This document shows, piece by piece, positions 3,634 through 45,780 of a stretch of DNA of 64,000 bases (positions within the stretch are counted from its first letter, which is position 1; each line of letters opens with the position of its first letter). The notes under the pieces are model-generated. The model saw only the letters and a program-made list of their open reading frames with translations. It was not told the origin of the DNA and did not search any database. This DNA comes from a virus. Position numbers and translations under genes: made by a program. The DNA lies in IMG/VR virus record IMGVR_UViG_3300018465_000004, positions 29,019-93,018 of that record; one strand, 5' to 3'.

Positions 3634-3654
3634 CCGCTACCCAGTGTGGCAGGA

Positions 3655-5081: not shown

Positions 5082-5111
5082 GTGAAAGGAGCCGGCCCGG
5101 ATCTGTAGGTA
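5082..5111 (+). promoter_or_regulatory. Class II element-specific promoter GYGAAH-N17-GTAGRTA
   Basis: Same bipartite motif and spacing at 19216, 27221, 54307. Confidence 0.6.
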
Positions 5112-5142
5112 CAAGCATGACGTCAACCCCCGGCGGGCCGTA

Positions 5143-9516: not shown

Positions 9517-9536
9517 CAGGAACTGGATCATCCGCG

Positions 9537-9925: not shown

Positions 9926-10059
9926 GACGGTCGGCTGGCTGATCTTCCTAGCCGGCCTTCCGGTCTGCTCCCGGTACTCCTTCTGGGGCGGGCTAGCGCT
10001 CATTCTGGTCGGGCTGGTCATGGCGCAGTTCTGACGTTGCCGAGCCGGTAGAAGCAGGT

Positions 10060-10290
10060 GTGACCCTGCACTACGCCGGCTGCCCACTGTGGAGTGACGA
10101 CTGGGGCCGGTGCTCATGTCCCCGACCGTGGCGCATTGTCCGCGACCGCATTGCCCCGGGCAGGCAACCATGGCTGGTCCTGCACTGGGAGGCAGACGGC
10201 AAGTATCACCTGCTGGTGCGTACCCTCACCTGGGCCCGTGCCATGCGCCTGGTCGACCAGCTCATCGTCTTCGACAGGACGTTCACGTGA
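10060..10290 (+). CDS. Hypothetical protein, leaderless
   Basis: GTAGAAG 5 nt before the GTG. Confidence 0.6.
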   Translation: MTLHYAGCPLWSDDWGRCSCPRPWRIVRDRIAPGRQPWLVLHWEADGKYHLLVRTLTWARAMRLVDQLIVFDRTFT

Positions 10291-10431
10291 CCGACCCGGA
10301 CGAGCGTCTCCCGCCCCCGGCCGATGATGTGCTGGTGCGCCCGTTCACCTGCGGCGGATTCGACTGCCCCTGCGAGGACGGGCGAACATGCCCGGACCCC
10401 CGGTGTCAGTGCGCCCGCGAGCCCGCAGGGG

Positions 10432-10980
10432 GTGGCGCTTAACGCGCCGGCTGGCCCAATTCACCACCGCGTTGTTGCAGCAAGAAGAGTCCAGCCGCGC
10501 TTGGAGTCGTACTTCAGCGTTGAAAGGAAGCCTTGCGTGTTGACCACCGCTGTAAAGACCCGCCGCCGGATCACTGTCACGGCGGTTCGCGAAGTCCTGG
10601 AGGAGATCGCCCGGGACTACCCGTGGCGCCAGGACCGCCGCGTGACCGACGAGCGTCCGGTTCGCTATGTCGACTTCGGACAGCCGTCCTGCCTGGTCGC
10701 CCACGTCCTGATCCGGCTCGGCTACTCGGTGGGCGTGCTTCGCGCCCTGGATGCCGAACATCGCACCGGCGAGCTGTTCCGGGCGGGCGGGGTCAAGGTC
10801 GCCGAGTCTCGACATCCGGCCCTGCGCCGGATCGATCCGACGGCGCGCCGGCTCCTGCAATACGTTCAAGATCAACAAGACCGTGGAGAGGCGTGGGGTC
10901 GCATCGTCGCCGCCGCCTTCCGCCCGTCCAGGTTCTTCCCCCGCCTCGACAGGGAGCGCAGACCGTGGTTGTGCGCCTAG
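10432..10980 (+). CDS. Hypothetical phage protein
   Basis: PSCLVAHVLIRLG motif; start uncertain. Confidence 0.55.
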   Translation: MALNAPAGPIHHRVVAARRVQPRLESYFSVERKPCVLTTAVKTRRRITVTAVREVLEEIARDYPWRQDRRVTDERPVRYVDFGQPSCLVAHVLIRLGYSVGVLRALDAEHRTGELFRAGGVKVAESRHPALRRIDPTARRLLQYVQDQQDRGEAWGRIVAAAFRPSRFFPRLDRERRPWLCA

Positions 10981-11225
10981 ACCGCCAGACCGGCACGTGC
11001 GCCCATTGTGGACGCCGGGACGTGGGCACCCCTGACGCTGGCTACAGCGGGATCAACGGCGAGCGGCTGTGTCACCCGAACGTCAACGGCAGACCCGACT
11101 GCTATCGGCTGGTGACCGTCTACAACCACCCGCTGGACTGCCGGTGCGAGGACCGGGTCCCGATCGCCGGTAGTCGTGATGCAGCGATCTGGGCCGGTCC
11201 CCGCCAGGTGGTCGTCAGGGTCTGA
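10971..11225 (+). CDS. Small Cys-rich protein
   Basis: CAHCG, CHPN, DCYRLVT. Confidence 0.5.
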   Translation: MRLDRQTGTCAHCGRRDVGTPDAGYSGINGERLCHPNVNGRPDCYRLVTVYNHPLDCRCEDRVPIAGSRDAAIWAGPRQVVVRV

Positions 11226-11638
11226 GCCGGGAGACGTCGTAGCGGCCGTCCCAGGTCCGCAACCACCCCTCCGGTTCGCCTCGCGGGTTGCCACGCCAGA
11301 CAGCGATGGCGGAGGTGATCCGGATGAAGCCGGTCGTCGAGACAGCTCTATACACCCAGAACCGGGGCGGATCGTTGAAGCCTTCCACCTCGCCCACGGT
11401 CCAGGTGGGGGAGTTGCGGGTCAGGGTGATCGGCGGCCAGTCCTCATCGGGCGGTGTGTAGTGCAGCACCAGAACGCGGGGATTCTCCGGCTCCTCGTCC
11501 CGGGTCAGCGCGACCCCGTGGGACATGGCTACCCGGATCAGGTGCGCGGCCTGTTGCTGGACGAGGGCGATGGCCCTGCGGTCGTCCTCGTCCTCGGTCG
11601 TGAGGCATGAATGAAAAAGGTCCACAGGGGACCAACGA

Positions 11639-11849
11639 TGATCCACGGAGGCGAGATGTGGGACGGGTAACCGACCCAGCGGAGCAGGTCGTTCGAGCCC
11701 GTAGATGCCGCGGGTGTGGTGCTGGCCCGCAGATGCCGTGCACCAACAAGCCCTCCGGCCGGCGGATGCACATCTCGCACAAGGCCCGTTGGGACGACGC
11801 CCGACCCGAGCTGGCGGTGCCGACCGCACCAGCCGGCTTCATCCTCTAG
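11639..11849 (+). CDS. Small zinc-finger-like protein
   Basis: GGAGG RBS; CRGCGA..PC..H; start approximate. Confidence 0.45.
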
Positions 11850-12266
11850 CGCGGAAAACCCCCGTCCTCGTCGGTAGAACAGGGTGGGTGCCAGTACCTC
11901 CTGCGGCTGGCACCCTCCACAAACTGGGCCGGGTCGTGGTAGCCGCAAGCGTCTTCCCTGGATGTGCGGCGCGCTCCCCCCCAGGGGCGCCACGCCCCGG
12001 CCCCCTGGCTCCGCCACCGAGCCGCGGAGTTGGGGGTGTAGGGCGGGATCGGTAGTCCCGGGTTGGTCGACCATCAACTCGGGACGGGGGAAGACCAGTC
12101 CCGCCCTGCACTCTCGATGAGTTGTCGAGCCGATGAAACAGGAGCCCCCGTGCGGCAGCCGCCACCGTCTGACCGGCGGGGGCCCCAGGCTCAACCGAAG
12201 TGTCAGCGCGCTGTGAATGCAAACCCGAAGGGATCCACATGTACGGGCTTCTGAACGTTCTGGTCA

Positions 12267-12731
12267 ATGTCTTCAGCGTCAACTTCTACGGCTGCTGCTG
12301 ACCCGAGTCCCGACCCGGACTCAGACACGGGGCTGGCACTGATTCCCTCGGAGGGTGGGGGAGAGGTGCCAGCCCCGTCCCGTCGCATCAGGATCCGCCG
12401 CCCCCGCCGGCTGGCCGTCGTCACGGGTGAACCGAAGCCCCGCGCCCACGGCGCCCAGAGCCCACGCAAGTGGTTCCCCGGCATGACCTGCGCCATCTGC
12501 GGCGAGGCCGTTCGAGCTTGGCAGCCGTTCAACTTCGACCACCAGGTTCCGATGTCCAAGGGCGGCCGGCGCGGCAAGGCCAACAAGACCTTCACCCACA
12601 CGTTGTGCAACAGCGTCAAAGGTGACCGCTACCCGTTCAACCTGCGCACCCCGGCGGAACGCGAAGCCGTCCGCGCCGTCGTCTCCGAGCGCACCTATGC
12701 CCGGCTGGAGCGGACCTGGCGCGGCGCCTGA
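12267..12731 (+). CDS. HNH endonuclease
   Basis: CAICG...DHQVPMSKGG...HTLCNSVKGD. Confidence 0.85.
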   Translation: MSSASTSTAAADPSPDPDSDTGLALIPSEGGGEVPAPSRRIRIRRPRRLAVVTGEPKPRAHGAQSPRKWFPGMTCAICGEAVRAWQPFNFDHQVPMSKGGRRGKANKTFTHTLCNSVKGDRYPFNLRTPAEREAVRAVVSERTYARLERTWRGA

Positions 12732-18102: not shown

Positions 18103-18797
18103 ACGGGATCCGTTGCTATGTCTGCAAAAACAACATCGCGGCCGGAGCCGCCGCCACCAAGATGATTGTCGAGTACGCCCAGCCGGACTCCACGGTCAAG
18201 ATCTTCGGTTACATGATGCCCGACGGCCCGCTGTCCAAGGCCACCGGTCGCATGGTCCGCGGCTACCACCACAAATGCTTCTGGGTGATCCGCAAACGCG
18301 AAGCCCGCGGCGACGCCGTCACCGGCCGGGTCCTCTACGGCGTCCCCACCGCCTACGAGATCGGCGCCCTGGTGCTGTCCCGAGAGGAGTTCGAGGCGCT
18401 GGGCCTCACCGCCGATCAGGCCCGCCAACAGGGCACCGCCTACCTCACCGAACGGCTCGACAAGCTGCGCACCATCGCCCGGCGCATCGGCAAAGGCGTC
18501 GGTGACGCCACCGTCCTGGAGGCGTACTGGGCCGACACCCACGCCGGCCCCTACCCACACAAGCACCACCTCCCGCTGGAGATCTACCAGCTCCGAGCGC
18601 ACCTGACCTACGCCCACGGCCTGGACGCTGCCGCCGTCCACAACCGCGACGGAATCCGGGGCGTCCACGACGCGCTACACACAGCCGCCGTAATGGCCGA
18701 AATAGAAATGGCGCGCGAAACAGACCCCGGCTACCAAGCGCCGGGCGAATCGGACTGGCGTGAGCAGGTAGTAGAGGACGTAGAAAACCTCAGGTGA
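18099..18797 (+). CDS. Hypothetical protein with N-terminal Zn-binding motif
   Basis: CYVC...YHHKC. Confidence 0.65.
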   Translation: MNGIRCYVCKNNIAAGAAATKMIVEYAQPDSTVKIFGYMMPDGPLSKATGRMVRGYHHKCFWVIRKREARGDAVTGRVLYGVPTAYEIGALVLSREEFEALGLTADQARQQGTAYLTERLDKLRTIARRIGKGVGDATVLEAYWADTHAGPYPHKHHLPLEIYQLRAHLTYAHGLDAAAVHNRDGIRGVHDALHTAAVMAEIEMARETDPGYQAPGESDWREQVVEDVENLR

Positions 18798-18844
18798 GGA
18801 GCGTCGTGCTCAGCGAAACCGAAGTCCGAAATGAAGAGGCCGAA

Positions 18845-19180
18845 ATGGCTGAATCGACCGGATACCGTTCAGGAAAGCCACATCCGTTGTGCCTGCTCAT
18901 TCGCGAACTGCGAAACGCAGCCGGCTGGAGCCTGTCGCAGTTCCAGGCGCGATCCGGGATCCCGGCAGTCGTCGTCGGCGCGTACGAGCGCGGCGACCGG
19001 ATCCCTCCCTTGTCCAAGCTGGAGGCCATCTTCGCCGCCTTCGGATACAAGCTCGCCGCCGCACCGGTGGGCTGCGACTCGGTGCGCGTAATCACCGACA
19101 TGGTCGGCGACCTGCGTGCCATCGCCAACCAGCTCGAAGACAGCAAGACCCTGTTTGCCGACTCATCCGCCGAGGAATGA
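18845..19180 (+). CDS. XRE-family HTH regulator
   Basis: IRELRNAAGWSLSQFQARSGIP..VGAYERGDRIP. Confidence 0.85.
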   Translation: MAESTGYRSGKPHPLCLLIRELRNAAGWSLSQFQARSGIPAVVVGAYERGDRIPPLSKLEAIFAAFGYKLAAAPVGCDSVRVITDMVGDLRAIANQLEDSKTLFADSSAEE

Positions 19181-20478: not shown

Positions 20479-20958
20479 TTACCCGGCGATTTTCCCGTTC
20501 GCGATCAGCCAATCACGCACCTCGGGCCGCCGATACAGCTTGGCCGAGGAGTCCACGCCCGGATCCGGGTTCGGGAAGTCGGCGTACCGGTTCTTCCAGT
20601 TGGCCACTGACGCTCGGCTCACCCCCGCCATCCGCGCGATCTCAGACGACGTCACGAGTTGGGTGTCGCTCGGGTCCGCCTTCCTAGCCGGACGGCGACG
20701 TGCCCCGCCCCGCTTCGCCGGCTGCTTCCTCGCGCTTGCCCGCCGGACCAGCTCCGCGCGGTATCGAGCAGAGGTCGTCCCGCCAGGCTCCTCGCAGTAC
20801 AAGGAGATGCCCACCATGTTGGTCCGGTTGGTCGCAAGCGCCTCGTCGACTAGCTCGGCGTACTGCGAGTAGAGCCGCAACAGTGCCGACTCTCCTTCGG
20901 TGATCCGCCCGGCCAATTCTTTGATGGCGTCAAGGATCGCCACGACATCTCTTCCCAA
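20479..20958 (-). CDS. DNA-binding protein with C-terminal AlpA/Xis-like HTH
   Basis: LVTSSEIARMAGVSRASVANWKNRYADFP..LYRRPEVRDWL. Confidence 0.75.
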   Translation of the reverse strand: MGRDVVAILDAIKELAGRITEGESALLRLYSQYAELVDEALATNRTNMVGISLYCEEPGGTTSARYRAELVRRASARKQPAKRGGARRRPARKADPSDTQLVTSSEIARMAGVSRASVANWKNRYADFPNPDPGVDSSAKLYRRPEVRDWLIANGKIAG

Positions 20959-26561: not shown

Positions 26562-26905
26562 GTGAAACAACGGCTGTCGCCTGTCCACAACGTCCAGGTT
26601 CAGTCATGATGGATTGACCGGTCACCTGCCAAGGCGCACCTCCCCAGAAGAAGGCGCGTGGCCTCCCCACAGATCGCGGGCACAGACCGCTATCTCGCAG
26701 GGTCCATACCTGTGCGGATTGCAGCGGCCAACCCGCGGACCTGTCGGCGGGTGAAGGCTGGGCCGTCGGTCCAGCCGCAGTGGGCGGAGGTCGAGGGAAG
26801 GGGCCTCGACCTCCGTCGCGGCGTTCTGGGTGCAGGTCAGTTGCAGGCGCTTGGCATACGCCTAGTGGCAGGTACCCTTGGGCTCCCCACACCCGAGGAG
26901 ACCTC

Positions 26906-34000: not shown

Positions 34001-34361
34001 CGTCCTGGCGTCCGGCATCATGGGATGGGACGGCACCAACTACCGCCGGCTGCTGTCCAGCACCGCCGGAGTCCTCTCCGTCGCTCCCGCCGGCTTCGGC
34101 ACCGTCAACACCAACAAGGCGACCGTCACCACCGCGGGCACCCGCGTGCAGCTGGGCGCCAATGCCGCGTCGGTTGTCATCGTGCGCGCCAAGCCGGGCA
34201 ACACCGGCCTGATCTACGTCGGCGGCAGCGGCGTGACCGCCGCCAACGGATACGACCTCAGCCCAGGCGGAGAGGTCACACTCAACGTCAGCAACACCAA
34301 CCTGATATACGTCGACGCCGCCACCAACGGCGACGGCGTCTCGTACATCTGGACCACCTAA
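31054..34361 (+). pseudogene. Long fibre/adhesin-like repeat protein split by a -1 frameshift near 33610 (about 1100 aa if joined)
   Basis: Frame of 31054 degrades after PVGYAG; frame of 33327 continues TANSTSNTYYAPV; one extra C in GGCCCACC joins them. Confidence 0.75.
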
Positions 34362-34385
34362 GCGGTCAGGCGTCGATCGGGGCGC

Positions 34386-34715
34386 TTACCTGGCGACTAG
34401 GATGCCCAGCTCAACCAGGCGCGACACCAGTGGCTGGGCTGCTTCGACGGCGGCTGCGGCCCGAGCCTCGAAGTCGGCAGCAAGTCCAAGGTGGACACTG
34501 GCCCACCGTTCGGCCGCTGGGTCGCCAGCTGCGTCCATCGCTTCGCCCAGGGCGGAATCCTCGTTCGTCACCGTCGACCGCGCGTAGGCCATGTTCGCCG
34601 CGCAAGTCACGAACGCGGCGACGGCAGGTTCCGAGATTCCCGCCTTGCTCAACGCCGCGAAGTCCACCTCGTAGCCGAGCTGGGCGGCCAGCTCGCGCTC
34701 CGGGTCCGGGTTCAT
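34386..34715 (-). CDS. Hypothetical protein
   Basis: AGGAGAG RBS, operon overlap. Confidence 0.6.
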   Translation of the reverse strand: MNPDPERELAAQLGYEVDFAALSKAGISEPAVAAFVTCAANMAYARSTVTNEDSALGEAMDAAGDPAAERWASVHLGLAADFEARAAAAVEAAQPLVSRLVELGILVAR

Positions 34716-35026
34716 ACGCTCTCCTGCGCCTTAACGGCCGCAACCGCCTCGCGGTACCCCCGGATGTCGCGCAGCGCGGTCGCCACGTGCTCCGAGTCCG
34801 AATGCCTGTCAAGCTCGGCCTCTAACAGGTCGAGCTGGGCCGGCGTCAGGCTCATCTTGATGGTGGCCTCGGACACCCCGAGGTACAGCTCCAGCCCCGA
34901 CGCTTCGCGCAGATCAGGCTGGTCGACCAACGCGTCCCAGACCGCCTGGATGACCGGCTCTGGCCAGTCGACTTTCAGTGACGTCGTCGCCACGTCGCTC
35001 TCCTTACCGTCCACTATTGGACACAT
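34712..35026 (-). CDS. Hypothetical protein
   Basis: Operon context; start may be downstream of AAGGAG. Confidence 0.55.
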   Translation of the reverse strand: MCPIVDGKESDVATTSLKVDWPEPVIQAVWDALVDQPDLREASGLELYLGVSEATIKMSLTPAQLDLLEAELDRHSDSEHVATALRDIRGYREAVAAVKAQESV

Positions 35027-35029
35027 TGG

Positions 35030-35830
35030 TCAGACCAGACTACCGGTACTCACGAGTCCGCCGGCCAGCGTTGTTTCGAGAGGCCGCCCAGGCTGGAACG
35101 GCATGCCAAGCTCGGCTTCGACGGCCAGGTACTCGGCGGCAAGATCCGGCCTGAGGCGCGCCGCCGTACACAGGTCCGCCTTGCTGGCCATGATGCAGAA
35201 CGAGCAGGATAGCCGGCTCATCCCCTGGCCGTAAGCCCAATGCCAGGGCAGGCTGACGTCGCGGTGCCGCTGCCAAACCTGGTCTTCGGTCCAGTGGTGA
35301 ATGGGAAGCCAGTCCCAGACCTCACGGGTGGTCTTGGTTGATGAGCGAGCGTTGGGCGCCAGAGCCGGTCGAAGCGCGCGCCCGGTGCTCTCCTGCGCGC
35401 GGAACCCGAGGCAGTACAGCACCCTGGCACGCCGCCCCAGCCCGGACAGCCATGCCTTGCAGAAGGCCGCGACGACACGGTATGCCGGCTGGCGCTTGTG
35501 GTCACTCGTGCAGTAGCGGATCCGGAAGTCCGCCCAACCGCGCAGCGAACCGTCGCGCTTGCGACGGGTGCGCATGTCTTCGAGCAGGTTGGCCCCGTCC
35601 TTGGTCGCGACCACGAGGTTGAGCCCGTAACGCGCGGCACGCGCCTTGACGAGCGCCTTGGTGCCCGGCCACGCGATCTTGCCCAGGTCGTTGTAGATGA
35701 CCAGGATGACGGAGCGATCAACGCCGGCCGCGTCACAGAGGCGGACCACCTCATCAACCATGGCGCCAGAGTCTTTGCCGCCCGAGTCGTTGATGACGAT
35801 CAGGTCCCACTCGTGGAGATTCGGATGCAT
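35030..35830 (-). CDS. PAPS reductase-family (DndC-like) protein
   Basis: PP-loop DSGGKDS, RYCTSDHK, GFRAQES..RA, WLPIHHW, SRLSCSFC. Confidence 0.85.
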   Translation of the reverse strand: MHPNLHEWDLIVINDSGGKDSGAMVDEVVRLCDAAGVDRSVILVIYNDLGKIAWPGTKALVKARAARYGLNLVVATKDGANLLEDMRTRRKRDGSLRGWADFRIRYCTSDHKRQPAYRVVAAFCKAWLSGLGRRARVLYCLGFRAQESTGRALRPALAPNARSSTKTTREVWDWLPIHHWTEDQVWQRHRDVSLPWHWAYGQGMSRLSCSFCIMASKADLCTAARLRPDLAAEYLAVEAELGMPFQPGRPLETTLAGGLVSTGSLV

Positions 35831-35839
35831 GATTCTTGG

Positions 35840-36037
35840 CTACCCCTCTTCCAGAGCAGAGCTGACCTCGTACGCGAGGTGCGCTTCGCAGACCGGCGGC
35901 ATGTTCATCGGCGGGTTGATCAGCACCACGAAGTCCGCGAACACACCGCACCCGCCGGGGGCCGACCCGCGGCTGACACCGGCCCGGTGCACGCACATCA
36001 GCCCCTCTTCCGCGAGTCGAACGGGTATCGCCTTCAC
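35840..36037 (-). CDS. Small zinc-finger-like protein
   Basis: CVH, CG, VCEAH. Confidence 0.5.
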   Translation of the reverse strand: MKAIPVRLAEEGLMCVHRAGVSRGSAPGGCGVFADFVVLINPPMNMPPVCEAHLAYEVSSALEEG

Positions 36038-36187
36038 TTCATCCTCCTGAGCGCGCGGGTCCGCCCCGACTTCGCACGGAAGCGGGGCGTGCCGATTTGG
36101 TCGTTGGTTCGATGTACGGCTTCGCTTGGCTGCGGACGTAGTGGCCTGCCATGGTGAACACGAGTAGCAGCAACAACCACCACCCGA

Positions 36188-36448
36188 TCACGCGTATACG
36201 ACCCTGCCGAACAGCCCGATCCCCAAGCGCAGCCTAAGCGCAGGCCGACCGTCATCCACGGCGTCACGCTCGTGCTCTCTGCACCAGAAGGAGCCGCGTC
36301 GGCGCTCGGCGTCGGACAGGCGGGTCTCGCAGAATGTCATGTGCGGCAGGCCGTACCCGGTCTGATACGCGCACAGCCCTTGGCCGACGCGCCGTCGATC
36401 ACCATCGTCGAACCGCGGACCACTAAGATCGACAAGCTCAACCCTCAT
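36188..36448 (-). CDS. Small Cys-containing protein
   Basis: CAYQ..FCE..FWCREH; ATGA overlap. Confidence 0.55.
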   Translation of the reverse strand: MRVELVDLSGPRFDDGDRRRVGQGLCAYQTGYGLPHMTFCETRLSDAERRRGSFWCREHERDAVDDGRPALRLRLGIGLFGRVVYA

Positions 36449-36864
36449 GCGTACACCACCGCGCCGAACAGTCCGCACTCCAGCACCGCGAGCGCGTCAA
36501 GCACGTCCAGGTCGCCCTCGTACCCGTTGGTGCGGTTGGCGCGCAGGATGTTGTCCCGCATCGACGCGGACATGTACAGCCGTTGACCCGTCTTCTTGTT
36601 GTGGTACACGCTGTGCGTGCCGTCGTGGTCCGTGACTTCCTGGAGCACGGCCGCCCGGATGACACCGAGGCCCTTTGTCAAGGTGTCGAACGTAACCGTG
36701 TGGGTTTCGCTTTCGTCGTCCTTGTCCTCGATGACGACGGTCGGGTTGGTCTTGTCCGTGTCGTCGGAGCGCACCACGTGGAAGAAGCCGTAGCCGGCGT
36801 GGGACATGGCGGTTTCGAGCAGGTCATTGAGAAATTCAATTCGCTCCGGGCTGCGCGTTTTCAT
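36445..36864 (-). CDS. Hypothetical protein
   Basis: GAGGAG RBS; C-terminal GLFGAVVYA resembles GLFGRVVYA of the downstream ORF. Confidence 0.65.
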   Translation of the reverse strand: MKTRSPERIEFLNDLLETAMSHAGYGFFHVVRSDDTDKTNPTVVIEDKDDESETHTVTFDTLTKGLGVIRAAVLQEVTDHDGTHSVYHNKKTGQRLYMSASMRDNILRANRTNGYEGDLDVLDALAVLECGLFGAVVYA

Positions 36865-36993
36865 GCCCCCACACTCCTCTAGCGCTAAGCACAGCACTAG
36901 CACCAAATGTACCGGGATCTCCAGCCAAACGGCTGATACGCAGGGACAATGCAGCCTAGAGACTGTTCGTGTGCCTAGCGCAGGAGGATGACA

Positions 36994-37566
36994 ATGAGCA
37001 CCACATACACCGCATACCGTAGGGTCCGGCGGGAGTACCCAGGACTGCCGGCGAGTCACGCGCTTGCCATACTCAGGCGTCGTGAGGCGCCGGCATGGGC
37101 TGCCAGCTTCGACCAGGTCGGAGACGACTACGTCGGCACGGTGGACGGCTGGGACATCCGCATCATGGCCGAACCGGACGAAGACGCCGATCTGTCGTGG
37201 TTGGGTACCTGGACTGACGACCCGACCGACGCGGTGCCCAACTCCAACGGCTCGTACGGCTCGTACAAGTACTTCCGCCCGGAGCCGTCGATCCTTCCCA
37301 CGCCCGCGGACCTGCGCAAGGCCGGCATGCCCAGCTCCAGGGTCCCCGAGGCGATCCGGGAATCCATGCAGGCGGCGGAGCGGGAGGCGCACATCACGCC
37401 CTACGACGTGACCGTTCGCGCCACCCGCGACGGACAGACCGGCTATGACTCGCTCGGCGGTGTGTACGCCAGCGGCGACGCAGATCTGCTGTGGACGGTT
37501 GACGACCATGACATGGTCGCCGCCGCCATCGATGCCGCAAAGGCAGAGCGCTACGCACACGCCTAG
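36994..37566 (+). CDS. Hypothetical protein
   Basis: AGGAGG RBS. Confidence 0.7.
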   Translation: MSTTYTAYRRVRREYPGLPASHALAILRRREAPAWAASFDQVGDDYVGTVDGWDIRIMAEPDEDADLSWLGTWTDDPTDAVPNSNGSYGSYKYFRPEPSILPTPADLRKAGMPSSRVPEAIRESMQAAEREAHITPYDVTVRATRDGQTGYDSLGGVYASGDADLLWTVDDHDMVAAAIDAAKAERYAHA

Positions 37567-37651
37567 TATCACCCGGACGTAGGATGCGCCGCGAACGACG
37601 GCCAGGGCACGCTACACAGGCACATCACCCCACCGCAGGAGCAGACCAACC

Positions 37652-38383
37652 ATGACGAACAACGACCCGCAGCTAGACCCATACGCAGCCTCCGCCCGGG
37701 ATCTGAGTTTCGGATCGCTGGACGCCGGAGTGCACGGCAACGACTGGGACCGGGAACAGCTCGGCGACGAGCAGTGGTCCTACTGGCAGTCGTTCACCCA
37801 CACCGACGACCACGGCCGCGAGCACATCCTGATCGACGGTAGCGGCGTGGTGGCCGCGCTCTGGGTGGAAGACGACCTGCGCTACTACGAGCGGCACGAG
37901 TTCGACGAGTATGCCGAGTCCCGCACGTACGAGGATGGCGACCTGTTCCCGGACGCGCTTACAGCCGACGAGTTCGAAGCGCTCTTCGAGGTGGAGCCGT
38001 TCCTGTCGAGCGTGGAAGGTCCCATGATGGCCGTGTGGTACGACTGCGCGGCCATCGGAGGAGACGAGATCACGGCCGCTGCCAAGATCCACAACCTCTC
38101 GCTCTGCGTGGTCCAGGTCGAGGAGAACTACGGCCTAGCCCTGACCGGCGGAGGCATGGATATGACGTGGGACATCGTGGCCGCGTATGTCGCGCTCGGC
38201 CAGCTCCCGCCGATTCGGTTCGCGCGCAACCTGCCGGCCATGGCCGGAGCGGGCAAGAGCGACGAGGACCGCCGATCGATCGCCGCGTGCCTGCGTAGCC
38301 TGCGAGCCGAGGCGGAAAACCTCACCAGGGAGGCGAACCGCCTCGAAGAGAACGCCGCGCGCTGGGCGATTGAAGGCGCGTAG
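37652..38383 (+). CDS. Acidic hypothetical protein
   Basis: AGGAG RBS; GPMM...LALTGGGMDMTW..AY..LG.LPP. Confidence 0.75.
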   Translation: MTNNDPQLDPYAASARDLSFGSLDAGVHGNDWDREQLGDEQWSYWQSFTHTDDHGREHILIDGSGVVAALWVEDDLRYYERHEFDEYAESRTYEDGDLFPDALTADEFEALFEVEPFLSSVEGPMMAVWYDCAAIGGDEITAAAKIHNLSLCVVQVEENYGLALTGGGMDMTWDIVAAYVALGQLPPIRFARNLPAMAGAGKSDEDRRSIAACLRSLRAEAENLTREANRLEENAARWAIEGA

Positions 38384-38400
38384 GGCGCACCACCCGCAAG

Positions 38401-38436
38401 GGCCCGGACCTGTCGCAGGTCCGGGCCTTCGCTTTT
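38401..38436 (+). terminator. Intrinsic terminator
   Basis: 12-bp stem GGCCCGGACCTG/CAGGTCCGGGCC followed by TTCGCTTTT. Confidence 0.75.
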
Positions 38437-38521
38437 GCAACCAACCTGCACCCGTCGCAGTGCTATGCACAGCCATAGCGCTATGGGAGTGTCATTGCAC
38501 CAACCCACGGAGGTACACCCC

Positions 38522-38647
38522 ATGAGCTACAAGAACGCCGCCGCCCGCCGCCGCCGCCGCGCCGAGACGCGCAAGCTCCGTTACCAGCGCCGCGACGCCC
38601 TGATGCGGGCCGCTGCCAAGCTCGCCGACCGCATCGCGCAGGGCTGA
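38522..38647 (+). CDS. Small basic protein
   Basis: GGAGGT RBS, Arg-rich. Confidence 0.55.
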   Translation: MSYKNAAARRRRRAETRKLRYQRRDALMRAAAKLADRIAQG

Positions 38648-38651
38648 GACG

Positions 38652-39218
38652 ATGGCCGCGCCGATCGTGACTAACCAGGCAATGGCCTTGACGGCTGACG
38701 ACATCGCAGCCTTCAAGCTCGCCGACTCGGTCACCTTCCACCACTACGAGGGCCGGAGTTTCATCCGCGCACACCTAGACAACACCTCGGGGGAGCGGAT
38801 CTTTACGGCGCGAGAGCAGCGCCTCTTTCAGTCCGAGCGTGACAGCAACGACAGGCATCGCGAAATCACCTGCGACGTCACCATGTACGGATACAGCCAG
38901 AACGGCTTCGAGAGTTGGAACCTGGAAAGCGCGCCGGGCGCAAGCGCGTTCCACTATGGGTTTGCCGCCAAGTACGACAAGCCTTGGCAGACAATAGCGG
39001 GGCTCCTGCGCGCAGGCGACCGCTTGCGGCTTGAATGGGTCGCAGACAACAACAACGACAACGTTCGCGGCGTTGGTTTCCACTGTGACGAACTACGTCT
39101 GATTGTGGTCCGCACCAACAAGCGCACGGACGCGTCGCACGACACCATGACCTTCCGCATCGTGACCCAGGTCGGCCCGGACAACTCCGCACGCCTCATC
39201 CGCCGCTACGGCCGCTGA
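38652..39218 (+). CDS. Hypothetical protein
   Basis: Coherent ORF in operon. Confidence 0.7.
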   Translation: MAAPIVTNQAMALTADDIAAFKLADSVTFHHYEGRSFIRAHLDNTSGERIFTAREQRLFQSERDSNDRHREITCDVTMYGYSQNGFESWNLESAPGASAFHYGFAAKYDKPWQTIAGLLRAGDRLRLEWVADNNNDNVRGVGFHCDELRLIVVRTNKRTDASHDTMTFRIVTQVGPDNSARLIRRYGR

Positions 39219-39230
39219 AAGGATGATGCA

Positions 39231-39479
39231 ATGAGCGCAGGAATCGGGCTCGCTCGTCAGCTAGCGGCCTGGTGCAGTGACGGCCTTGCCGCAACCCTCT
39301 ACCTCGTAACCGGGGGATACGCCACGTCGGACCGGTTCGAGTTTGACGAGTCCGAGGGCTTGCTCTCGTATGAGGCGCCCGGCGGCGTGCTCCACTTCAT
39401 CAACCCTGACCATGTGACCGGAATCCATTGGGGGCCGCCGGAGGATCGGGACCCGGCATGTGTCCCTGTCGCGGTCTAG
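39231..39479 (+). CDS. Small hypothetical protein
   Basis: AAGGA RBS. Confidence 0.6.
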   Translation: MSAGIGLARQLAAWCSDGLAATLYLVTGGYATSDRFEFDESEGLLSYEAPGGVLHFINPDHVTGIHWGPPEDRDPACVPVAV

Positions 39480-39589
39480 CTGCCGAGACTCACCCGAACG
39501 TCTGATGTACCGAGGCGCTAGGCGTCTGCCAAGCTAGGCGTGCGCCTAGCGCTTCGGAACCACCGCAACGAAACCCGAGGTACAGAGCA

Positions 39590-40000
39590 ATGAACATCGC
39601 CGACATCCGCGGACTCTCCGTCAATCAGCTGGTCAAGCTCGCCGATTGCGCGTCGCCGGATTCCATGACCAGTCCAGGCGCCGCGTTCCTGGAATCGGTG
39701 CGGGACGCCGTCGCCGACACGATCGAGCCCGACGGCACCCTGCGCGACGACTCGCGGCACGAGATCGCCGATGGTGCGCCCGACGTGTACACCGTCACGC
39801 GCTGGGCGGAGTTCGTGGATCTCGCGGCCTACCAGGAAGAGCCGGACTGCGGTGAATGGCCGTCGGACCTGACGGACGCGGCCGGCGTCGCGCTGTACCA
39901 GATCGCCGCGCGTCTGATCTCCGCCATTCTCGACGACATCGACACGGACGAGACCGAAGACGATGACAGTGAAGCCGACGCGGAAGGCGAGCCGGCATGA
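39590..40000 (+). CDS. Acidic Ocr-like (DNA-mimic) protein
   Basis: RHEIADGAPDVYT resembles Ocr IHMAADNAVPHYY; ALYQ helix; very acidic tail. Confidence 0.5.
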   Translation: MNIADIRGLSVNQLVKLADCASPDSMTSPGAAFLESVRDAVADTIEPDGTLRDDSRHEIADGAPDVYTVTRWAEFVDLAAYQEEPDCGEWPSDLTDAAGVALYQIAARLISAILDDIDTDETEDDDSEADAEGEPA

Positions 40001-40218
40001 CTCGTTACACTGAGGCGGACCTGGCTTGCGATGCTGGCCGACTCGCTGATTGGAGCGCCGAACTAAAGACGGCTGTCACGTTGGGCGGGCACGCTCCCCA
40101 CGTTGCCGAATTGGCGAAAGCTATCAGCACCGTTGCGAATCGCATCCTGGAACGAGAGGGACGGCCGACCGGAGTAGAGCCGACGCCCCGAAACGACGGA
40201 TACGAGCGGACTTCCTGA
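39997..40218 (+). CDS. Small hypothetical protein
   Basis: ATGA overlap. Confidence 0.55.
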   Translation: MTRYTEADLACDAGRLADWSAELKTAVTLGGHAPHVAELAKAISTVANRILEREGRPTGVEPTPRNDGYERTS

Positions 40219-40288
40219 CCCTTCGGCCGATCCGCCAGCGCTAGGCGCATGCCAAGCTCTGGCGGATCGCTCGTTAGGAGGCAACACC

Positions 40289-40618
40289 ATGGAACCCACC
40301 ACCTACACAGACGCAGATCTGGGCGCAGCCGAGGCAGGGTCAAGCCTTGGCGATGCCCGCGCGGCGGGTTACCTGCGCGCTGTCGAGTGCCCGGAGGCAC
40401 GCGCGGGCATCGTCGCAGAGGCAACCATCATGACCAACGTGACGGCCGGCTGGCGCTATGCCGATGCCGTACAGAACCGCGTCGCGGCCTACCTGCGCGG
40501 CGAGGACCCGAGGCGGTACCGCGATCTCAATGCACGGCTGATCGCGGACGATCCGCACGGCTTCAAGGCCGCCGGAGTCGCGGAAGGCGACCTAGACGCA
40601 GTCATGCGTCGGCTCTGA
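40289..40618 (+). CDS. Hypothetical protein
   Basis: AGGAGG RBS. Confidence 0.65.
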   Translation: MEPTTYTDADLGAAEAGSSLGDARAAGYLRAVECPEARAGIVAEATIMTNVTAGWRYADAVQNRVAAYLRGEDPRRYRDLNARLIADDPHGFKAAGVAEGDLDAVMRRL

Positions 40619-40632
40619 CCCACCACACGCGC

Positions 40633-40666
40633 AACGGGCCGCCCGGTCGGGCGGCCCGTTCGCTTT
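40633..40666 (+). terminator. Intrinsic terminator
   Basis: 12-bp stem AACGGGCCGCCC/GGGCGGCCCGTT then CGCTTT. Confidence 0.7.
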
Positions 40667-40755
40667 GCACCCAAGCTGCACCCGACTAGCGCTACGCGCA
40701 GCCATATCGCCGTGAAAGTATCGCTAGGTAACCCCACGCTAGGAGGTACCAAGCG

Positions 40756-41253
40756 ATGCCACGAACAGCCGAAATCCTCGCCGATCGCCAGGCGTACGCG
40801 ACCACCCTGCCGGCCGACCGCGCACCGCGCATTCTCACGTTCTCGGCCGCACTCGACGCGCACGACGTCACGCGGGCATGGGCCTACGGGTACGCGGTCC
40901 GGTACTCGATCCAGGGTGACGACACGCGGCGCGGCCTGGCCATCTGGCGCGACGACTTCAGCGAGCTTTCCGCGGGCCGCCTCGCCGACCTGCACCGCGC
41001 CGTTTTCCTGGTGGACGACGGTAAGACCGTGGTCCCGCACTACGTCGCCGGATGGAACCCCACCGCCCACCCAGGCGCCATGTTCTTGCAGCCCTACCCG
41101 ACCAACCCCAACGGCGCCACCAGGCCGGACAACGGCGAGACGATCGACTACGGCACGTGGTTCGCATCCTGCCGCGTCGCCTATCACCTCAAGGTCTCGG
41201 CTCTGTCCGTGACCCTGACGCAGGTACCGGCCGAGAACGGAGCGCAGGCATGA
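40756..41253 (+). CDS. Hypothetical protein
   Basis: AGGAGGT RBS. Confidence 0.7.
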   Translation: MPRTAEILADRQAYATTLPADRAPRILTFSAALDAHDVTRAWAYGYAVRYSIQGDDTRRGLAIWRDDFSELSAGRLADLHRAVFLVDDGKTVVPHYVAGWNPTAHPGAMFLQPYPTNPNGATRPDNGETIDYGTWFASCRVAYHLKVSALSVTLTQVPAENGAQA

Positions 41254-41711
41254 TCGACACAACGGCCTTCCGCGCGATCGTCAGGGAAGCACTCGGCGCC
41301 CGTGCAGTGATGGTGCGAGCCGGCGAGACGCACTCAGACAGCCTTTCCACGCTCACCCGTGTGATCGCATACCTCCTGGGCGCCGAGCCCAACACGCCCG
41401 GCATGCGCACGATGTTCGAGGCGGTTTCACCGGTGATCGCCGACGCGTTGCCGGAGCATGTCGCACCCCTCATGCTGACGGTGGCGGCCGAGCCGGTATC
41501 GGGGGTGCTGTACACGCTGGCGCCCGACCGGGCGCCCGTGACGTATGACAGAGCCGATGGACAGATCTACCGGGTAGAGCGCACCGGTACCGACGTGACC
41601 ACGTCCAGCGTTGCGCCGACCGACCCAGACTGGCTCACGGCGTGCGGGTACGTCCAGCGCGAGACGATCGGCTCCATCGTCGCCACCGTTTCCGGCGGTA
41701 GCTTCGGATGA
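41250..41711 (+). CDS. Hypothetical protein
   Basis: ATGA overlaps. Confidence 0.6.
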   Translation: MIDTTAFRAIVREALGARAVMVRAGETHSDSLSTLTRVIAYLLGAEPNTPGMRTMFEAVSPVIADALPEHVAPLMLTVAAEPVSGVLYTLAPDRAPVTYDRADGQIYRVERTGTDVTTSSVAPTDPDWLTACGYVQRETIGSIVATVSGGSFG

Positions 41712-41968
41712 ACGGCGAAACGGTCCACACGTGGGCGGACGCTTTCGGCGCCTGGCACGCTCGGATCACGTTCCCCGCGCCCGGGTACGGGCCGGCTCAC
41801 TTGCGCGGCGAGATCCGACGCATTCGAGCCAAGGCGCGCCGCGCGATCCGCCGTGAGATCTTGGCTCGCGAGCGTGGGCCCATCAGGGTTCGCATAGAGG
41901 TCACGGCGAATGACGAAAACAGCCAAGGGCAGATGCAATCGATCACCTTCGGGGAGCGCAAGTCATGA
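41708..41968 (+). CDS. Small basic hypothetical protein
   Basis: ATGA overlaps. Confidence 0.6.
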   Translation: MNGETVHTWADAFGAWHARITFPAPGYGPAHLRGEIRRIRAKARRAIRREILARERGPIRVRIEVTANDENSQGQMQSITFGERKS

Positions 41969-42246
41969 GCCGCAAACGAGAGACGCACGCGCAGGCCGCC
42001 ACGCGCATGCTCGGTGCGGCGGAGACTCACATGCGTGAGGCTGGTTTCTTGCGCGAGTCGACGCGGCTTGAGCTGTGCACGGACGGCACGGCCTATTGGG
42101 TCGCCTACGTCAGTGCGCCCGACCTGAACCGTTCCACGTCGGTTATCGGCGCCTCACCGCGGGATGCCGCGCGATTCGCGCACGGGTACCTGACGGCTGT
42201 GTGCGCCATCACGGGCCAGACACGGCACGGTTGCCGGCCGGACTGA
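41965..42246 (+). CDS. Small hypothetical protein
   Basis: GGGGAG RBS, ATGA overlap. Confidence 0.55.
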   Translation: MSRKRETHAQAATRMLGAAETHMREAGFLRESTRLELCTDGTAYWVAYVSAPDLNRSTSVIGASPRDAARFAHGYLTAVCAITGQTRHGCRPD

Positions 42247-42366
42247 CCTGCAACTGATTCGCACCTGACCTCTCCTCCGATCGGACGATGCGCTAGGCAC
42301 ACGCCTAGCGCATCGTTTCACCCACGCGCGTGCAGCTCCCGCGCGTTTGGGAAGGGAGACGCAACC

Positions 42367-43299
42367 ATGACCCTCGCGATTGCCAGGCCGCCGACCGACC
42401 ACCCAGAAGAGTGCACGTGTGTGCCGTGCCTCTTGGCGGACATGGATTGTCACGTCTATTCGACCTTCGGGATTGATTCCCAGAGGTACGCGGACGGCCG
42501 CAACGGTGAGAACGTCGCACCGGAGCGCACGCGCTACGCCACGCCCGGCGCCCGCTCTGGTTACGGCATTGTCCGGGAGATCTCACGCGGTCAGCTGAAC
42601 CGAATTCGCTGGATGATGGCCACGCGCGACACGTCCAAGCTTGTCCGCCTGCCCGGCTCTGAGGTGATCGAACGGATGTCGCTCCGCGGTGCCTCAGACC
42701 TCATAGACCGGCTCGAAGCATGCCCGGTGCTACCCGGCATGCCTGAGCGCCCCCCAGGGCCCTGGGAGCGTGAGGCAACGGCGCCCATGCTCGCCTACCT
42801 GCACAAGCTCTACGCGGGCAAGCAGCACACGTTTGCGCCGCTCCCGGGTTACGTGCCGTTCGCACTGGCCCGCCACTTGATTGATCAGCTCACGGATAAG
42901 CCCTGGAAACCGTGCGAGGCTACCTCTCGGCCGACCCGTACGGGTGCGCCTGCCTCGCTGGCGAAACCGATTGATGTTGGTGCGTATTTGCTGGATGGGA
43001 CCGTCTATAAAGTCCAGCGCGGGCGCGAGTCGGGCAAGCTCTACGCCAAGGTCCTGGTAAAGGTCGACCCGTACACCAAAATGGTTCGCGGTAAGGAAAA
43101 GCTCATTACCGCCGAATTCAAATACAGCGGCGCCGCGATTGTTTCGCGTTTGACTCCGGACATGCGCATGACCCTCGAAATGGCAAAGGAATACGGCGCG
43201 CAATTCGGCGTTTGCTGCGAGTGCGGCGCCGTTTTGACGGCTGAGGCATCAATTGAGGCACAAATCGGGCCGGTATGCGCGGGCAAGCTAGGCCGCTAG
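42367..43299 (+). CDS. Protein with C-terminal DUF6011-like zinc motif
   Basis: GVCCECGAVLTAEASIEAQIGPVCA. Confidence 0.7.
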   Translation: MTLAIARPPTDHPEECTCVPCLLADMDCHVYSTFGIDSQRYADGRNGENVAPERTRYATPGARSGYGIVREISRGQLNRIRWMMATRDTSKLVRLPGSEVIERMSLRGASDLIDRLEACPVLPGMPERPPGPWEREATAPMLAYLHKLYAGKQHTFAPLPGYVPFALARHLIDQLTDKPWKPCEATSRPTRTGAPASLAKPIDVGAYLLDGTVYKVQRGRESGKLYAKVLVKVDPYTKMVRGKEKLITAEFKYSGAAIVSRLTPDMRMTLEMAKEYGAQFGVCCECGAVLTAEASIEAQIGPVCAGKLGR

Positions 43300-43445
43300 C
43301 GGGCCCTCACGCGATGGCGCGGCGGGGCGAATGTCTCAGACTTTCCCCGCCGCCCCCATTGATTCGGCAACCAACTTGCAACTTGACGCTAGGCACAGCG
43401 CTAGCGCACGCTGGCCCCTTACCCCACGCGATTGGAGCCCCCCTC

Positions 43446-43952
43446 ATGTGCAAGGCCGCCATCGACTACACCCACCGCGTATCACTGCGCAAGTCCGGCG
43501 TGTACTACACGGCCGACGTGATCATCCCGGACGGATCCGACACGGGTGTCTACGGCGACGGGTGCGAGCCCGGTACCGGCGCCTACATGGAGTCCGGCTG
43601 GATCGACCCCCGTTGGAGCCGCGAGACCGTACACGAGAACCGCGATCACGTGCGCCCGGACATGTTCGAGGCATCGCAGGATGGCGACCGGCGCCGTTGG
43701 CTGGCCGATCGTCTCTCCGAGCGTGTCAACTGCCTCGACATCGACAACTACGGCAACCACTACTCCGTGCTCTACGGTGAGGCGGAAGAGCCGGATTACC
43801 GGACGGGCATCACGGTCAGCGTCGCGGCTCACCCGTACGGATTCGAGGATTGGGAGATTGAGTCCGCGCTGGACATGATCCGCCGGGAGCGCCTGCATCG
43901 CGCACGCATCGCGCGTGAGTACCTGGATCGGCTCTATCCCCGCGCGGCCTAG
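43446..43952 (+). CDS. Acidic hypothetical protein
   Basis: GGAG RBS. Confidence 0.65.
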   Translation: MCKAAIDYTHRVSLRKSGVYYTADVIIPDGSDTGVYGDGCEPGTGAYMESGWIDPRWSRETVHENRDHVRPDMFEASQDGDRRRWLADRLSERVNCLDIDNYGNHYSVLYGEAEEPDYRTGITVSVAAHPYGFEDWEIESALDMIRRERLHRARIAREYLDRLYPRAA

Positions 43953-44353
43953 CCGCTCAACCGCACGTCACGCCAAAAGTCCAAGACTTTTCCCCCGCGC
44001 CTGGTGATCCCCAAATCACCAGGCGCCCCTTCATATCTGTCCCCTACGAACCCACAAGCGGATATGAGGGCTATCTAGCTGTCACTGGCCCTAACAGGCA
44101 CCTAGCGGCCTAGCTGAGGCTCTAACCCCCAAGAGCCGGTACGTCGGCTCACACGCTTTACAGCCCCCCAGGGGCCATCCATAGGCCGGTACCGGCATGT
44201 CTACTGTCCCGTTCCCCACACGGCACCCTTAGCGCTTTAGGAGCAAGTTGGGTGCAACCCTGCATATCCCTTGGGGATAGCACTGTGCCTAGCGCATGGT
44301 TGGCGCTGGTGCTGCTCATGGCGCCGACCGGCCGCACGGGTAGGGGGTAGGCA

Positions 44354-44731
44354 ATGGAGATCACGGTTGACATGGCAGAGGTGATCCTCGGCTATGTGGA
44401 GTGCGCACTGTGGAGTGAGCTTGACGATGCCGGCATGCCGCTTGACCAGCGGTTTGACCAGTCCGACGTCACGGCCGACGCGCTCACGGCGATGGCCAGT
44501 GAGCTGCAAGATTTCGTCGCCGGATGCCTCGCGGAGCGGCCGGAGATCTTCGACGGTATGGAGCCCGGACAGATCGGTCATGACTTTTGGCTCACGCGCA
44601 ACCGGTACGGCGCGGGTTTTTGGGACCGCGGTCTAGGCGAGCGTGGGCAATGGCTCACCGACATGGCGCACCCCTACGGGTCCGCGATGCTGTACGTGAC
44701 CGATTCGGGACGCGTCGAATTCGTCAGCTAG
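44354..44731 (+). CDS. Acidic phage protein (GHDFWLTRN..GAGFWDR type)
   Basis: Motif I recall from phage hypothetical proteins. Confidence 0.7.
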   Translation: MEITVDMAEVILGYVECALWSELDDAGMPLDQRFDQSDVTADALTAMASELQDFVAGCLAERPEIFDGMEPGQIGHDFWLTRNRYGAGFWDRGLGERGQWLTDMAHPYGSAMLYVTDSGRVEFVS

Positions 44732-44868
44732 GCCGCTCGATAATGGGGATTATCGTGTGCCCGATCGGCCGGAGAGATTCGACCGATCGGGCTACGCGTG
44801 TGCCTAGCGCTAAGGTAGCGTTGTCCCTGGTAGGCCGCCCTAACGGCCGGAGCGATGGGAGCGCAGCA

Positions 44869-45111
44869 ATGAGCCTCGACAGCATCAACGACCGGCTTCA
44901 GCAATCGCCCGACGCACAGCGCGCGTGGGACGTGCTGGCAAGCGTTTCCGACGGCATGCTGCGCAAGCTGTGCGACTTGAACCACCTGGAAACGGGCGGC
45001 AAGCGGGACGCGCTCACCTATCGATTGATTGCCGACGTGCACGGCAACACTGCGGCCGGTGCGGAGCGCATCGCCCGGTCGCTCGGCGCCTCTCTGCTTG
45101 GGGGTTTGTGA
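44869..45111 (+). CDS. Small hypothetical protein
   Basis: GGGAG RBS. Confidence 0.55.
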   Translation: MSLDSINDRLQQSPDAQRAWDVLASVSDGMLRKLCDLNHLETGGKRDALTYRLIADVHGNTAAGAERIARSLGASLLGGL

Positions 45112-45114
45112 GCC

Positions 45115-45453
45115 ATGCGCACCTACACCGGAGAGCAACTGTCAACCATCATCGATGCCCTTGTGACCACGAACGGGCCGGATGCCCTGATAGAGCGCCT
45201 GTTAATGGACTACCGGGAGACGCGTGCGCGTGAGTTGCCATCGGGCCCCATCACTAAGTGGGATGCCCTGCACACGCATGAGCGGGCCCAGCTGGAACGC
45301 ACGCCATTCATGGATGGCGTGCAGCTCTGTAGCGGATGCGGCACGCCGCTACCCACTGAGGCGGCATTCGCACAGCACTTCACAGTGACCGATCGGCGCT
45401 ATCTCAACCTTGGCTCATGTGGAGCCGCTACGCGCACGGACGGAGCGGCCTAG
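45115..45453 (+). CDS. Hypothetical protein with C-terminal CxxC
   Basis: CSGCG; in-frame TTA codon at 45202. Confidence 0.55.
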   Translation: MRTYTGEQLSTIIDALVTTNGPDALIERLLMDYRETRARELPSGPITKWDALHTHERAQLERTPFMDGVQLCSGCGTPLPTEAAFAQHFTVTDRRYLNLGSCGAATRTDGAA

Positions 45454-45590: not shown

Positions 45591-45780
45591 CAAGATCAAC
45601 TTCTACTGGACACCACTACAAGCAATTCCCGACCGCAAGATCAACTTCTATTAGCTCACCTACAGCGGAATGGCAGGCAGTCAAGATCAACTAGCGCTTT
45701 AACCACTCCAAATTGGTCACCGGTCCAAGATCACTTAATAGCTGCCTATTCATCGAAGATTCTCTAGATCAACTCACTCC
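45591..45780. repeat. Degenerate ~45-bp tandem array with core CAAGATCAACT; candidate iterons/origin
   Basis: AGATC cores start at 45593, 45638, 45684, 45728, 45766; AT-rich, non-coding. Confidence 0.75.

Follow-up and report, generated by a model that had tools for sequence, protein, structure and literature searches.

General features of the phage and its accessory block

The window analysed here is a 64,000-nucleotide stretch of DNA (bases 29019–93018) from one virus record of 137,600 bases with 66% G+C, IMGVR_UViG_3300018465_000004. The element under study is a 22-bp palindrome that recurs in an 8-kb block of small accessory genes, between window positions 36882 and 44810. Coordinates refer to the window unless given as genome positions or assigned to a relative. 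The proteins encoded by the record include a family A DNA polymerase (PolA), RecA, a beta clamp, a DnaB-like helicase, a Mu-type portal, and a tyrosine recombinase.

The nearest named phage is Microbacterium phage Magritte, with a PolA identity of only 37%. PolA homologues at 55–68% identity are, however, carried by many metagenomic contigs of 120–140 kb, and the record is therefore assigned to a large family of uncultured actinobacterial phages. A near-identity DNA search of the accessory block against 50,697 phage records gave no match. Neither two block proteins and RecA, used as single queries against viral contigs, nor an exact motif scan of viral contigs retrieved anything, and the palindrome count in Magritte equalled the control count. 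In the viral contigs, a PolA alignment was needed to reach relatives. The relatives considered below include one Joint Genome Institute (JGI) contig with a PolA identity of 67% and a homologous block (loci L005, L009, and L015), a Logan contig (L016), a more distant ENA contig (L017), and an IMG/VR relative with a PolA identity of 62% (G001).

The block (36995–45453, plus strand) contains 17 small plus-strand genes arranged in 10 units. The gene map was based on G+C content at third codon positions and on inspection of the sequence. DUF6011, in gene 42367–43299, was the only Pfam family recognised among the block genes. A typical unit consists, in this order, of a terminator hairpin, a directional upstream element, the 22-bp palindrome, a ribosome-binding site, and one to four genes.

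Distribution and geometry of the palindromes

The survey for the pattern GCGCTAGG-N6-CCTAGCGC with at most three mismatches revealed 12 copies in the window, compared with 0.65 expected and a maximum of three in 100 shuffles. Ten of these lie inside 36882–44810, at 36882, 38460, 39515, 39531, 40238, 40689, 42290, 43386, 44274, and 44789. This confirms the array reported in a preliminary description of the sequence, which had placed these ten copies at the same coordinates. No second cluster is present elsewhere in the whole record. A symmetrised weight matrix applied to the entire genome identified 15 sites with scores of at least 14.7, everything else scoring 11.4 or less. The 15 sites comprise 12 in the block, one at 26847, and a tandem pair at genome positions 7529/7552, outside the window.

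The 8-6-8 geometry is kept at every site. The spacer is always 6 bp long, is partly conserved (CACASS), and is present in both orientations, all as initially described. When the 12 block sites are read in one orientation, seven different spacers are found, and only two subsets share one, namely CACAGC (three times) and CACACG/CGTGTG (four times, in both orientations).

The sites are located at gene boundaries, as had been claimed. All ten intergenic gaps longer than 40 nt between 36865 and 44868 carry a site, 13–82 nt before the next start codon, and in three of these gaps a strong terminator-like hairpin (-30 to -33 kcal/mol) stands just ahead of it. The first site (36882–36903; three mismatches, score 20.6) is in a divergent control region, 17 nt ahead of the start codon (ATG) of minus-strand gene 36445–36864. 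The second (36960–36981; score 15.9) directly adjoins the Shine-Dalgarno sequence that serves ATG 36995, the start of the first plus-strand gene, and combines a perfect right arm with a poor left arm, in agreement with its earlier listing as a half-site. The next site (37548–37569) overlies the stop codon of gene 36995–37566, 82 nt before ATG 37652. It was among the copies listed in the preliminary description and has a matrix score of 22.4, but departs from the pattern at four positions.

The unit 37652–38383 ends with an intrinsic-terminator-like hairpin on the plus strand, followed by a T-rich tail (38396–38432; -32 kcal/mol, z -5.9). It is succeeded by the plus-strand directional upstream element TTGCAACC..CTGCACCCGTC (38435–38456), whose core CACCCGAC is common to the relatives L015 and L016, and by the palindromic site 38460–38481 (score 23.3), 40 nt before ATG 38522. 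Two overlapping sites, 39515 and 39531, have their middle half-site in common (39515–39552) and are located 37 nt before ATG 39590. The outer arms make a perfect inverted repeat of 10 bp, with a folding energy of -39 kcal/mol for the entire structure. The site 40238–40259, 29 nt before ATG 40289, is part of a longer hairpin with 10 perfect flanking pairs (40228–40270). The unit 40289–40618 is again closed by a terminator-like hairpin (40629–40663, plus strand; -32.9 kcal/mol, z -4.8), after which come the upstream element TTGCACCC..CTGCACCCGAC (40665–40686, plus strand) and the site 40689–40710, 45 nt before ATG 40756, which has no hairpin potential (-5.4 kcal/mol, z +0.8).

The perfect 13-6-13 palindrome pointed out previously does exist at 42285–42316. 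It contains the consensus 22-mer at 42290–42311 and lies 55 nt before ATG 42367. A terminator-like hairpin at 43312–43361 (plus strand, -30.4 kcal/mol) includes a second palindrome type, ATGTCTCAGACTTTC, and the site 43386–43407, with GGCAACCAACTTGCAACTTGAC ahead of it, is found 38 nt before ATG 43446. The last two sites, 44274–44295 and 44789–44810, are each 58 nt away from the next start codon (ATG 44354 and ATG 44869, respectively); in the latter, TAGCGT stands 17 nt past the left-arm hexamer. The second palindrome type, A(A/T)GTCY-N-RGACTTT followed by YCCC, was detected in two block gaps (43331–43347 and 43977–43993) and also in L015 (19746 and 20425), late in the homologous block, where it heads a different conserved leader, GCACGAAAGTCTCAGACTTTCCCTAA.

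Hairpin or protein-binding site

The preliminary description held that the arms co-vary. Our analysis does not bear this out. Over 16 aligned sites, arm pairing was observed in 71.1% of cells, compared with 73.3% after dealing the 3' arms among sites, and 448 of 500 shuffles reached a value as high. Only two compensated cells between the arms were found, and the claim rests on one position at 38460, a site that folds weakly. Pairing of the flanks is at background level in 13 of the 16 sites. Rfam gave no match at the gathering score (best E 0.59).

Given that the arms lack covariation and that site 40689 is unfolded, the conserved feature is the half-site sequence and not the structure. A half-site sequence that is common to the sites and kept at fixed spacing is the signature of a dimeric DNA-binding protein, and the match of each half-site to the consensus independently of its partner points to such a protein acting on DNA rather than to a hairpin. 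From this we infer protein binding, and we consider that the palindromes are probably operators for a dimeric phage-encoded regulator, in an accessory block that is probably expressed early.

The same observations make it improbable that the palindromes act as RNA or DNA hairpins, that is, as terminators, mRNA-protective ends, or processing sites between cistrons. A conserved stem sequence would not be needed for such a role, and the putative loop occurs in both orientations. The sites that would suit it best are 39515/39531, 40238, and 42290, which are extended to 16–20-bp stems (-29 to -39 kcal/mol) and whose gaps have no separate terminator; also, every site would be transcribed, given read-through. 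At these three places the palindrome may double as a stem-loop.

The site at 38460 is followed by an open reading frame for 41 amino acids (38522–38647) with a good ribosome-binding site. Its product has no family match and contains an arginine-rich stretch, AAARRRRRAETRKLRYQRR, which resembles the RNA-binding arginine-rich motif of N-type antiterminators. N-like antitermination, suggested by this reading frame, was set aside, since loop orientation varies and the sites come after terminators, not before them.

The block and its motif in related phages

The JGI contig lacks the GCGCTAGG palindrome. Its locus L015 contains 12 copies, all on the coding strand, of another element, composed of CACCCGAC, a short gap, and TAGGCA-AC-TGCC(T/A)A. 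At least 12 copies of CACCCGACAC-N7-CTAGAC-N4-GTCTAGTGTTG (core CTAGAC-N4-GTCTAG) are present in L016. The geometry CTAG-N8-CTAG is common to the window phage, L015, and L016, and no sites of this kind were found in the relatives G001 and G002. In the more distant L017, GTTAGCC-CG-GGCTAAC is located 7–10 nt before almost every ribosome-binding site (677–12538). This contig also has canonical TTGACA-N17-TAGGAT promoters in a few gaps, and its layout is nearer to that of the start-associated sequences of cluster K mycobacteriophages.

An element of lineage-specific sequence lies upstream of five of the seven orthologous genes in L015 and/or L016, namely those corresponding to 36445, 36995, 37652, 40756, and 43446. 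For gene 40756, the ortholog is preceded by the element of its lineage in both L015 and L016. The orthologues of 38652 and 41250 disagree on the upstream element, and no homologue of gene 37652 was found in G001–G005. Position is thus conserved and sequence is rewritten in concert in each lineage, which is what co-evolution of the sites with a trans-acting factor would be expected to produce. For the stoperators of cluster A mycobacteriophages, co-evolution of this kind has been shown (PMC6550527).

The four central bases of the L016 element are either CAAC or GTTG, and its flanks are directional throughout. A flipped centre between directional flanks is as expected for a symmetric binder. It also suggests that the occurrence of the spacer in both orientations in the window phage need not be functional.

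Two further repeat arrays were noted. Right after the block, the window contains an array of CAAGATCA(A/C) repeats (45591–45733). Five copies are present in L016 (13479–13771), followed there by a gene for a 65-aa GntR-type winged-helix protein. Being common to L016, this array appears to be a conserved feature of the family and no local oddity. The variable region of G001 (L024, ~10,600–10,860; record, ~83,460–83,720) includes a long tandem array of 13–14-nt units, GCACGCTGCCGCTC / GCCTGTCCGCTC, which lies just before an AT-rich stretch.

Relation to promoters

Wherever promoter hexamers are recognisable, the element overlaps the -35 or the -10. In the window phage, this applies to three places. 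At the outlying site 26847–26868, the left arm provides TTGGCA as a -35 hexamer, followed after 16 nt by TACCCT, with ATG 26906 located 37 nt past the site. The tandem pair at genome 7529/7552 covers TATGGA, 17 nt, and TAGGGT. The third place is 1436–1457, a doubtful member with a matrix score of 11.4 and, consistent with its initial listing as a half-site, a perfect right arm only. Here, the spacer of the promoter of the integrase, as we call the tyrosine recombinase, contains the right half-site GCCTAGCGCC. TACCCT is found only 7 nt before the start codon (GTG 1475), which suggests that the integrase transcript is leaderless; in L005 (2221–2251), TAGTGT stands 7 nt before the ATG. The identical 10-mer GCCTAGCGCC is located just upstream of the integrase -10 both in the window phage (1448–1477) and in L005, whose block motif differs.

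Similar overlaps are seen in the relatives. The right arm of the L016 element runs into an invariant TAnnGT. In G001, six block promoters have the form TTGACTTAGGT..., 18 nt, TAnnnT (TTGACT-N18-TAnnnT), and their -35 is supplied by the palindrome-like TTGAC-TTAG-GTCTA (TTGACTTAGGTCTAC).

Two candidate promoter assignments were rejected. The word CACCCGAC does not qualify as a -35, since its distance to candidate -10 hexamers is 15–16 nt in the window phage versus 20–22 nt in L015 and L016. The L015 motif was also not accepted as a T7-like promoter, as no RNA polymerase family was recognised among the large proteins scanned. Words similar to CACCCGAC may represent a general upstream element of this phage family. 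Elsewhere in the window, CACCCGTC (5071–5125) precedes a GTGAAA-N17-GTAGGTA element, which had been named a class II promoter in the preliminary description.

A candidate regulator

Three proteins encoded in the window had been proposed as binders, namely an XRE protein (18794–19180), an AlpA-like protein (20479–20958), and a ribbon-helix-helix protein (52233). No site is present near any of their genes. The tandem pair at genome 7529/7552, by contrast, is placed directly on the promoter of a gene for a 92-aa protein (genome 7599–7877), covering both the -35 and the -10. This gene follows the DnaB-like helicase gene and a gene for a 240-aa protein, outside the window, and its homologues occupy the same position in 10 of 29 related metagenomic loci.

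The 92-aa family displays a clear helix-turn-helix (HTH), LEGWxTLxEA..LG.S.QG.H..VF. Five of 11 family members match the Pfam family HTH_17 (PF12728; best E 1.9e-4), with no match for the window phage's own copy. The AlphaFold model of the protein (mean predicted local distance difference test score, pLDDT, 79.5) has an extra 23-residue C-terminal helix and matches Xis of mycobacteriophage Pukovnik and BldC of Streptomyces (4j2n, 6ama) with a root-mean-square deviation of 1.8–1.9 Å and target TM-scores (template modelling scores) of 0.71–0.78, although the Foldseek E-values of these matches are only 0.06–0.1. The homodimer prediction scored 0.26 against a mark of 0.42, a result that counts neither for nor against dimerisation. 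A tblastn search of named phages gave no match to this protein, nor did a sequence search of the PDB.

In G001, the homologue of the 92-aa gene is preceded by CTAGACTTAGGTCTAC, which is the block motif of that phage and is otherwise almost confined to block promoters within the 129 kb of G001. Weak homologues in G002 and G004 have no clear palindrome upstream. Since two lineages carry their block motif at the promoter of this HTH gene, it is the best candidate for an autoregulated regulator. We tentatively propose this role for the Xis/BldC/MerR-like winged-helix (HTH_17) protein, giving it somewhat less than an even chance. The same recurrence on a phage HTH gene in two lineages argues against a host transcription factor that would bind the palindromes and tie the block to host physiology. 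We regard that possibility as very improbable, even though relatives with different motifs may have different hosts.

Repression or activation

According to the operator model, each of about ten short transcription units would carry one operator, or a pair of them, at its 5' end, with further operators at 26847 and on the promoter of the regulator itself. Binding of the regulator would most likely repress by occluding the promoter, so that the block as a whole could be shut down during lysogeny or once the early phase is over.

Several observations weigh against this model, in addition to the long stems at 39515/39531, 40238, and 42290. No sigma-70 consensus promoter was found in the block, and most block sites are without a recognisable -10 (TAnnnT at 16–18 nt); such sites could mark activator-dependent promoters, or no promoters at all. 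The link between regulator and operator is based on only two lineages, and four of the six block copies in G001 have a degenerate right arm. Finally, the sites bound by Xis and BldC are direct repeats, not palindromes, and the two proteins occupy them as monomers or head-to-tail.

The scarcity of recognisable promoters also lends some weight to an alternative that we consider unlikely, positive control. Under this explanation, the palindrome would replace the missing -35 or -10 and be read by a phage activator or an RNA-polymerase specificity factor, and the block would be turned on as one temporal class. The similarity of the left arm, TAGGCA, to a -35 fits this, as do the position of each unit after a terminator, so that it needs its own start, and the use in G001 of a related motif as the -35 of canonical promoters. 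A promoter, however, needs no dyad symmetry. On the promoter of the putative regulator, both hexamers lie under the sites, an arrangement typical of repression, and the right arm of the L016 element extends over a good -10. We somewhat favour repression over positive control.

Recombination and gene shuffling

The preliminary description had left open whether the array is an operator regulon or an integron- or shufflon-like system of gene cassettes. The evidence given above favours operators, and no support was obtained for cassettes. In the cassette scenario, the palindromes would be core sites at which the tyrosine recombinase (1475–2476) excises or inverts cassettes. The 8-6-8 geometry does fit Xer/Cre cores, with their inverted arms around a 6-bp asymmetric spacer, and subsets of sites share a spacer (CACAGC; CACACG/CGTGTG). 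Most of the spacers, however, differ from one another, and no recombinase gene is adjacent, that of the integrase being 35 kb away. The half-site GCCTAGCGCC and the leaderless integrase promoter are also kept in L005, whose block motif is a different one, and the promoter contexts in the relatives are directional. The attC sites of integrons are folded, imperfect palindromes of 57–141 bp at the 3' end of a promoterless cassette, with the integrase, attI, and Pc (the cassette promoter) adjacent. The sites described here are simple 22-mers that follow terminators and precede genes, instead of marking the 3' ends of cassettes, and their arms lack structural covariation.

Comparison of gene order with L015 and L016, suggested in the preliminary description as a check, did reveal shuffling. 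Genes 38652 and 41708 are located at other places in both relatives. In L015, the stretch separating the orthologues of 40756 and 41250 contains two additional genes, with additional sites. To the left of the block, seven minus-strand genes, including one for a 3'-phosphoadenosine-5'-phosphosulfate (PAPS) reductase-like protein, form a module (34386–36864) that starts at the divergent control region. The first gene of this module is orthologous to the first plus-strand block gene of L015, which indicates that the module is inverted between the two phages, beside an inverted site pair. These differences in gene order are the remaining point in favour of recombinase action. There is no remnant of a site at the other end of the inverted module (34361–34386), however, and part of the rearrangement junctions lie away from sites. 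Taken together, we consider a role as recombinase core sites extremely improbable.

Since gene order differs between relatives, the repeats may still serve as points of evolutionary shuffling. This pattern recalls the promoter early stem-loop (PeSL) repeats of T4-like phages, and no site-specific system is needed to explain it. PeSL elements combine an early sigma-70 promoter with a stem-loop (PMC2839356, PMC4122927), and homologous recombination at these repeats has been shown (PMC2839356, PMC4122927) and shuffles small genes (PMC4122927). In both systems, a terminator stem-loop and a promoter form a composite unit that recurs among the small genes in a hyperplastic region, and gene content and order are shuffled between relatives at or near the repeats. 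The array differs in its operator palindrome, which PeSL elements do not have, and in that recombination at the repeats is putative in our case. That the terminator/operator modules double as control sites and as places where genes are moved, swapped, or inverted between phages of the family appears quite unlikely. If they did, they would be an actinophage counterpart of the T4 PeSL "mobile regulatory cassettes", with the phage recombinase possibly helping at those sites that share a spacer.

Comparison with known phage control systems

In Streptomyces phage phiC31, the conserved inverted repeats (CIRs) studied in the 1990s by Ingham, Wilson, Smith, and co-workers are reportedly operators for the c repressor in many intergenic regions of the early region. 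Both cases concern an actinomycete phage with one inverted repeat placed before many early units, near unusual promoters and terminators, and both have the repeat also at the gene of the regulator itself, which in our phage is a candidate only. The sequences, however, are unrelated, and the candidate described here is a 92-aa HTH_17 protein in contrast to the large phiC31 repressor.

The stoperators of cluster A mycobacteriophages are asymmetric sites of 13–14 bp, which are bound by a monomer, oriented with transcription, and distributed genome-wide (PMC9283540, PMC6550527). They resemble our array in being numerous and dispersed, and in that their sequence changes by lineage together with a single phage regulator. 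The sites reported here differ in being symmetric 22-mers located mainly in one block.

Cluster O mycobacteriophages possess 17-bp repeats, TGTTCGG-N3-CCGAACA, in more than 30 invariant copies throughout the genome, a third of them inside genes and most of them away from promoters (PMC4351075). Binding of a dimeric protein has been predicted for these repeats, and their function is unknown (PMC4351075). Dyad symmetry, an asymmetric centre in both orientations, and many intergenic copies are common to both systems, whereas the copies in our phage are about 15 in number, degenerate, and all at the 5' ends of units. In cluster K, the extended start-associated sequence (ESAS) is an inverted repeat with 17-bp arms and a variable 4–13-bp spacer, accompanied by a 13-bp start-associated sequence (SAS) at the start codon (PMC3203893). 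Like our palindromes, SAS and ESAS are tied to gene starts, are kept upstream of the same gene families in different genomes, and have a lineage-specific consensus. Unlike them, the palindromes have a spacer fixed at 6 bp, and an SAS-like box is absent.

The array most likely adds one more case to a type of phage control system that is known but little understood, represented by the phiC31 CIRs, the stoperators, and the repeats of clusters O and K. It delimits about 17 orphan genes, probably controlled together, whose action on the host is likely to be early, in a family of 120–140-kb uncultured actinobacterial phages that has so far been unstudied. It also offers a testable pair of operator and candidate regulator, in which the control sequence would be rewritten in concert in each lineage while the positions are kept. 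Such a pair could supply orthogonal repressor/operator parts for actinomycete genetics, and it could help to account for the comparable repeats of cluster O and cluster K mycobacteriophages, whose function is unknown.

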